The notes under the pieces: generated by a model
Seen by the model: the letters and a program-made list of their open reading frames with translations, nothing else
Told to the model about the DNA's origin: nothing
Databases searched by the model: none
Translations under genes and position numbers: made by a program
Source of the DNA: Escherichia phage phiHAO2-2
DNA length: 39,299 nt
Sequence record: PP079212.1
Strand: one strand, 5' to 3'
Part shown: in pieces, positions 39,195 through 39,299 of the stretch
Position numbering within the stretch: the first letter of the stretch is position 1
Layout of the letters: each line of letters begins with the position of its first letter

Positions 39195-39299
39195 TCTCAC
39201 AGTTCAAGAACCTCAAGTCTCCCCATAGGCCCTCTTTAAGTCCAGACCAAAGGCCCTACCCGTGCCAGTCTATCATAAGGTTGGACCGATGGTCGAGAC
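39195..39299. repeat. Terminal repeat, right-hand part of a single collapsed copy that continues across the window junction
   Basis: Begins TCTCACAGT like the T7 left-end terminal repeat (T7 starts TCTCACAGTGTACGG). No second copy at the other window end. Boundaries approximate. Confidence 0.4.

Follow-up and report, generated by a model that had tools for sequence, protein, structure and literature searches.

A probable K1F-type terminal repeat, split by the record origin, in the genome sequence of Escherichia phage phiHAO2-2

The ends of T7-like phage DNA are best described for T7 and T3, in which the terminase cuts precisely and the terminal repeat is duplicated during packaging (PMC5923468; PMC13595956; the maturation and packaging mechanism is also treated in PMC3276506). 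At the concatemer junction of T7, the sequence ATCTGTT is a class II pause signal for the phage RNA polymerase (bioRxiv 10.1101/2021.01.11.426313; PMC11617373), and with the T7 enzyme it reportedly does not tolerate base changes (bioRxiv 10.1101/2021.01.11.426313). The deposited T7 genome carries an exact 160-bp duplicate at its record ends, and the T3 genome an exact 231-bp duplicate. Closer to the phage studied here are K1F and its relatives. In K1F (NC_007456/DQ111067), an exact repeat of 178 bp stands at each end of the record; EcoDS1 annotates its terminal repeat at 1-178 and 39075-39252, and SH3 has an exact 184-bp repeat at both record ends, so that the repeat references of the K1F group span 178-184 bp. 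The ends of SH3, a Citrobacter phage, were determined by run-off sequencing on phage DNA; the paper gives 183 bp for this repeat and quotes 179 bp for that of K1F (PMC4925675). The repeats of Peacock and Penshu1 are labelled in their records as PhageTerm predictions. Lengths of 165 bp, annotated for GA2A and reported for phage F, were set aside as annotation choices, because the left end of GA2A aligns through the same CT/ATCTGT edge as the others (here and below, a slash marks a cut). Two further records, 216Ecol046PP (PP328844, with repeat-bearing ends at 1-679 and 40586-41264) and EPr2 (OM256482), each hold four copies of the repeat in an artefactual-looking arrangement, and both were dropped for boundary calling.

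The sequence analysed here, referred to as the window, is the full record of Escherichia phage phiHAO2-2 (PP079212.1; 39,299 nt, one strand). On nucleotide comparison we assign it as the complete genome of a K1F-like coliphage of the genus Kayfunavirus, in the T7 family. Identity with K1F is high genome-wide and the two genomes are collinear: the right 20 kb matches K1F at 95.6% identity over 99% of its length, the left 20 kb matches several Kayfunavirus records at 89-97%, and the gene order is that of T7. The nearest record is Escherichia phage phiHAO1-1 (PP079211), with 97.1% identity in the left 20 kb and 99.1% in the right. That genome is 40,137 bp long against 39,299 bp for phiHAO2-2, and the early regions of the two differ by several indels and replacements. 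Segments are replaced or deleted at window positions 1100-1640, 4888-5350, 5625-6974 and 22670-22682, and a 228-bp gene that phiHAO1-1 carries between its tail tube genes, annotated there as "RNA binding protein", is missing from phiHAO2-2; these changes explain the 838-bp gap in length. The phiHAO1-1 record is flagged circular (bases 1 and 40137), and its first base is the mid-repeat base at which the phiHAO2-2 record also begins.

Both terminase genes of the T7 type are encoded, gene 19 with the T7-specific nuclease domain, and the region that holds the repeat is bounded by the last gene of the genome and the early promoters:

35927-36190, plus strand: terminase small subunit, gene 18 (PHROG 1351, 1.2e-34; Pfam DNA_Packaging_2, 3.1e-12)
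36738-38501, plus strand: terminase large subunit, gene 19 (Pfam Terminase-T7_RNaseH-like, 5.8e-38; PHROG 38, 3.5e-131)
38799-38957, plus strand: homologue of gene 19.5, with no further gene before the junction (PHROG 2193)
459-488, plus strand: host sigma-70 early promoter TTGACA-18-TAGTAT, among the early promoters of the left end

The gene 19.5 product is found in the matching position in EcoDS1, SH3 and phiHAO1-1, and EcoDS1, T7 and T3 all annotate host promoters at the place equivalent to 459-488. The repeat thus lies in non-coding DNA, between the end of gene 19.5 at 38957 and the host promoter, with the first early gene (ocr-like, as in phiHAO1-1) starting at 671. The repeat of the K1F group is likewise placed between gene 19.5 and the early promoters.

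When the end of the window was joined to its start and the joined sequence was aligned with both ends of the reference genomes, including both annotated copies of the EcoDS1 repeat, a single copy of the terminal repeat emerged, in two parts:

39195-39299, plus strand: terminal repeat, part 1, the first 105 bases of the collapsed direct repeat
1-78, plus strand: terminal repeat, part 2, the last 78 bases (right end within the range 77-82)

The join from 39299 to 1 falls inside the repeat, between K1F repeat positions 101 and 102, with no gap and no extra base in the alignment at that point, so the window closes cleanly on itself. A reading made earlier from the letters alone (the sequence-only reading) had observed that the start and the end of the window differ, and had proposed that one collapsed copy is present and that the coordinate origin is arbitrary. 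The searches bear this out. A direct-repeat scan of the whole window returned only the phage promoters and a few internal families, and no end-to-end repeat; a BLAST search of the window with the 183-nt element matched only the element itself; and comparison of the first 500 with the last 500 nt gave only short matches of the CCTACAGT type. With no repeat common to both ends, one copy is present, and the window represents one unit of a head-to-tail concatemer. Since that one copy is itself interrupted by the join, the coordinate origin is arbitrary.

It would be a different matter if the start and end of the window were real physical ends, with a linear DNA running from GTTAGGTCAACG... and a repeat that is missing or was trimmed. 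The nearest record lends this some colour, as phiHAO1-1 begins at the same base and two records therefore have one origin. The circular flag of phiHAO1-1, however, indicates an assembly convention; among relatives whose ends are determined, none starts at the homologue of window base 1; and T7-type packaging requires a repeat at both ends (PMC5923468). Because the join is seamless within the K1F repeat and the sole other record with this origin is flagged circular, we regard real ends at this position as scarcely credible. The common mid-repeat origin of the two records suggests instead a shared assembly or rotation convention.

Over its whole length (39195-39299 plus 1-78), the split repeat shares 90% identity with the repeat of K1F and 88% with that of EcoDS1. 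K1F, EcoDS1, SH3 and Peacock resemble phiHAO2-2 in both flanks of the repeat, in the CCTACAGT arrays and in a right edge of the form CT/ATCTGTAT; they differ in that the K1F-group repeat stands at both record ends, whereas in phiHAO2-2 it occurs once and is split by the origin. The difference from K1F within the repeat amounts to about 15 substitutions and a 4-base insertion, GTGC, at 39262-39265. The same insertion is found in phiHAO1-1, whose terminal repeat is identical to that of phiHAO2-2, and is missing from K1F, EcoDS1, SH3, Peacock, GA2A and 216Ecol046PP; this absence from the other references counts against the explanation that we favour. Similarity to T7 is confined to much shorter stretches: local alignment finds a 36-nt match (80.6%) that spans the left cut and a 19-nt match (89.5%) that spans the right. 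Taken end to end, the repeat matches that of T7 at about 60% identity and that of T3 at 59%, and its interior aligns poorly. Judged by these alignments, the K1F-type repeat, and not that of T7, is the true homologue of the phiHAO2-2 repeat and its proper reference.

What T7 and T3 do share with phiHAO2-2 are the two boundary blocks, ACCAnAAAAnTyTGAn6A/TCTCAYAGT on the left and GTCYCT/ATCTGT on the right. They likewise have flanking arrays of 7-8-base repeats, a phiOR promoter upstream and a gene 18/19 terminase.

The left boundary had been recognised from a T7-like opening at 39195. The T7 genome does start with TCTCACAGTGTACGG, and TCTCACAGTTCAAGAACC begins exactly at window 39195. The 8-mer TCTCACAG is nevertheless no proof when taken alone, since it occurs three times in the window and on both strands (plus strand at 16981 and 39195, minus strand at 36708); only its position and context count. 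Both are specific at 39195. This base aligns to base 1 of K1F, EcoDS1, SH3, Peacock and 216Ecol046PP, and the left ends of T7 and T3 also map to it, with the start TCTCAYAGT common to the family. From 39195 to 39261 the window is identical to K1F bases 1-67 (67/67), which, together with the gapless alignment across the 39299-to-1 join, extends the match at 39195 beyond chance. The relatives with determined or annotated ends, namely K1F, EcoDS1, SH3, Peacock, Penshu1 and GA2A, have records that start at the homologue of 39195. When the 183-nt element was searched against the database, about 20 of the 60 best rows placed its first base at record base 1-3, and the remaining rows held the element internally and in single copy, as would be expected of records that, like the window, were collapsed and arbitrarily rotated. 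A sample spread over all 243 matching records gave a like pattern, extending to SH5, IMM-002 and T7M. The proposal of a physical end near 39195 therefore stands, as the homologous base is the start of every relative with determined or annotated ends. We predict that the left end of phiHAO2-2 virion DNA lies between A39194 and T39195.

Conservation continues upstream of the predicted cut, in a block that is not part of the repeat:

39165-39194, plus strand: conserved block TGAGTTTTGGACCAAAAGTTTGAGACCACA, directly before the left cut and the same in K1F, EcoDS1 and SH3

In K1F, EcoDS1 and SH3, the right-end copy of the repeat is preceded by GAGTTTTGGACCAAAAGTTTGAGACCACA, which matches window 39166-39194 exactly. 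A core of this block, ACCAnAAAAnTyTGA, is common to the window, T7 and T3 and stands at an equal distance from the cut in each. We consider the block at 39165-39194 a candidate terminase recognition sequence on the ground of its conservation. In a literature search, no paper turned up that uses the term 'pacB' for the packaging site of T3. An inverted-repeat scan near the junction revealed no hairpin at either cut site. About 165 bases upstream of the left cut, just past gene 19.5, a hairpin whose 11-bp stem is perfectly paired (CTAAGGTCAGT and ACTGACCTTAG) lies at 38991-39031; it is kept in K1F and has no trailing T-run.

The right edge had to be placed by homology, because one copy cannot reveal where a repeat stops. 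In K1F the repeat stops at the homologue of window 77, in EcoDS1 and 216Ecol046PP at that of window 78, and the T7 and T3 repeats also map to 78; the run-off-sequenced SH3 repeat ends at the homologue of 82. Right edges deposited in K1F-group records accordingly read ...GTCTC, ...GTCTCT or ...GTCTCTATCT (window 77-82). As the reference records differ by up to 5 bases, the edge is uncertain to the exact base, and we predict that the right end of the virion DNA falls after T78, within the range 77-82. At 73-85 the window reads GTCTCT/ATCTGTA, where T7 and T3 have GTCCCT/ATCTGTT. The sequence-only reading had carried collinearity with the T7 terminal repeat on to about position 100; this holds for the boundary blocks only, and the repeat would end some 20 bases short of that, at about 78 (77-82). 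Because the blocks shared with T7 and T3 sit exactly on both boundaries, we estimate the repeat (39195-39299 plus 1-78) at about 183 bp (182-187), which falls within the family range of ~150-250 bp in close genera. The differences among right edges are more probably methodological, arising from the end calling of each group. That the right cut of K1F-like phages itself varies by base, with staggered or imprecise ends, or that the pause specificity of the polymerase differs, is a possibility we consider unlikely.

A far longer repeat with defined ends, for example a composite of ~679 bp, is what the ends of 216Ecol046PP and EPr2 would imply if taken at face value; the two records come from different laboratories, and both place four copies at 1, 501, end-679 and end-179. 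Within 216Ecol046PP, however, the inner copies have the usual junction surroundings and the outer ones are joined to sequence that is otherwise internal, while the window holds one copy with normal K1F-like context on both sides. The four-copy ends are probably artefacts of end reconstruction, and since they look artefactual, a long composite repeat in phiHAO2-2 is very improbable.

A single-copy, circular-looking assembly such as this one is also what a permuted genome would be expected to yield, and headful packaging would leave circular permutation without any fixed end, the match to the start of K1F being merely inherited. Against this, the large terminase subunit bears the T7-specific nuclease domain, the region is about 95% identical to K1F, and both cut-site blocks are kept as far as T7 and T3. 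Moreover, relatives at 86-92% identity in the element have sharp ends, as shown by run-off sequencing and PhageTerm. A T7-type terminase and sharp ends in relatives together make headful packaging very unlikely here.

The surroundings of the repeat are also those of a T7-type concatemer junction:

39119-39156, plus strand: right-end array of three CCTACRGT repeats, just left of the terminal repeat
115-205, plus strand: left-end array, in which the short repeat CCTACAGT occurs five times, immediately to the right of the terminal repeat
79-85, plus strand: ATCTGTA, counterpart of the T7 pause signal, directly right of the repeat, as ATCTGTT is in T7 and T3
38589-38614, plus strand: last phage-RNA-polymerase promoter, in the phiOR position and reading toward the junction; a member of the 10-copy ACTATCACTATAGG family

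The window has 18 copies of the octamer CCTACRGT where 2.5 would be expected, a total reached in none of 100 shuffles, and 8 of the 18 copies cluster on the two outer flanks of the repeat. K1F, EcoDS1, Peacock and GA2A all retain the left-end array. In the equivalent places T7 and T3 carry arrays of a different unit, CCTAAAG, versus CCTACAGT in phiHAO2-2. The ATCTGTA sequence stands at the junction in all of the aligned K1F-like phages (the window, K1F, EcoDS1, Peacock, GA2A and SH3), and EcoDS1 annotates the equivalent eight bases, at its positions 177-184, as 'concatemeric junction'. As a bare motif, ATCTGTW has no weight and shows no enrichment, with 6 copies in the window where 11 would be expected; position and context are what count.

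The phiOR promoter is annotated at the same site, between genes 19 and 19.5, in EcoDS1, T7 and T3. Around ten phage-RNA-polymerase promoters with the core ACTATCACTATAGG are spread over the plus strand, with sites at 1792-1838 and 38568-38614 and also at 5346, 7042, 8022, 10322, 16823, 19644, 20648, 25055 and 32332. The first and the last of these (1792-1838 and 38568-38614) are 83% identical over 47 nt, including the upstream sequence CTAACCnACTG, and recall the phiOL/phiOR pair of T7. Elsewhere in the window, three related hairpins of ~50 nt, at 5373-5422, 12506-12555 and 36194-36243, have the core TTAGACTCAAGGTCAT...GGCCTT and fold z-scores of -3.6 to -4.9; they look like T7-type RNase III processing sites.

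Taken together, we hold it very probable that the phiHAO2-2 record is one concatemer unit in which a single direct repeat of ~183 bp is split by an arbitrary origin, and that the virion DNA is linear, running from T39195 to about T78 and carrying the repeat at each end. The positions of phiHAO2-2's own virion ends, at 39195 and about 78, are extrapolated from those of its relatives. The packaged DNA would start at T39195, end after about T78 and measure ~39,482 bp, with a copy of the repeat at either end. As is established for T7 and T3, these repeats would let replicated genomes join head to tail, neighbouring units sharing a single repeat. The terminase of genes 18 and 19 would then cut at both edges of the repeat, which would be duplicated as the DNA is packaged. 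Phage RNA polymerase that started at phiOR may pause at the ATCTGT on the right edge of the junction and thereby help maturation to start. We infer by analogy that the pause signal and the upstream block would act as in T7. The junction motif of phiHAO2-2 is ATCTGTA, however, and its departure from the ATCTGTT of T7 counts against a pause role, which for a K1F-type polymerase is best called putative.

This arrangement of the repeat is an ordinary one, already known for K1F-like phages; its value is for annotation, and it touches no open biological question. Several related records have small ORFs called across the repeat, and such calls are not to be trusted. Moving the origin of the genome to 39195 and adding a second 183-bp copy at the right end would give a sequence of about 39,482 bp, laid out as the DNA that phiHAO2-2 is predicted to package.
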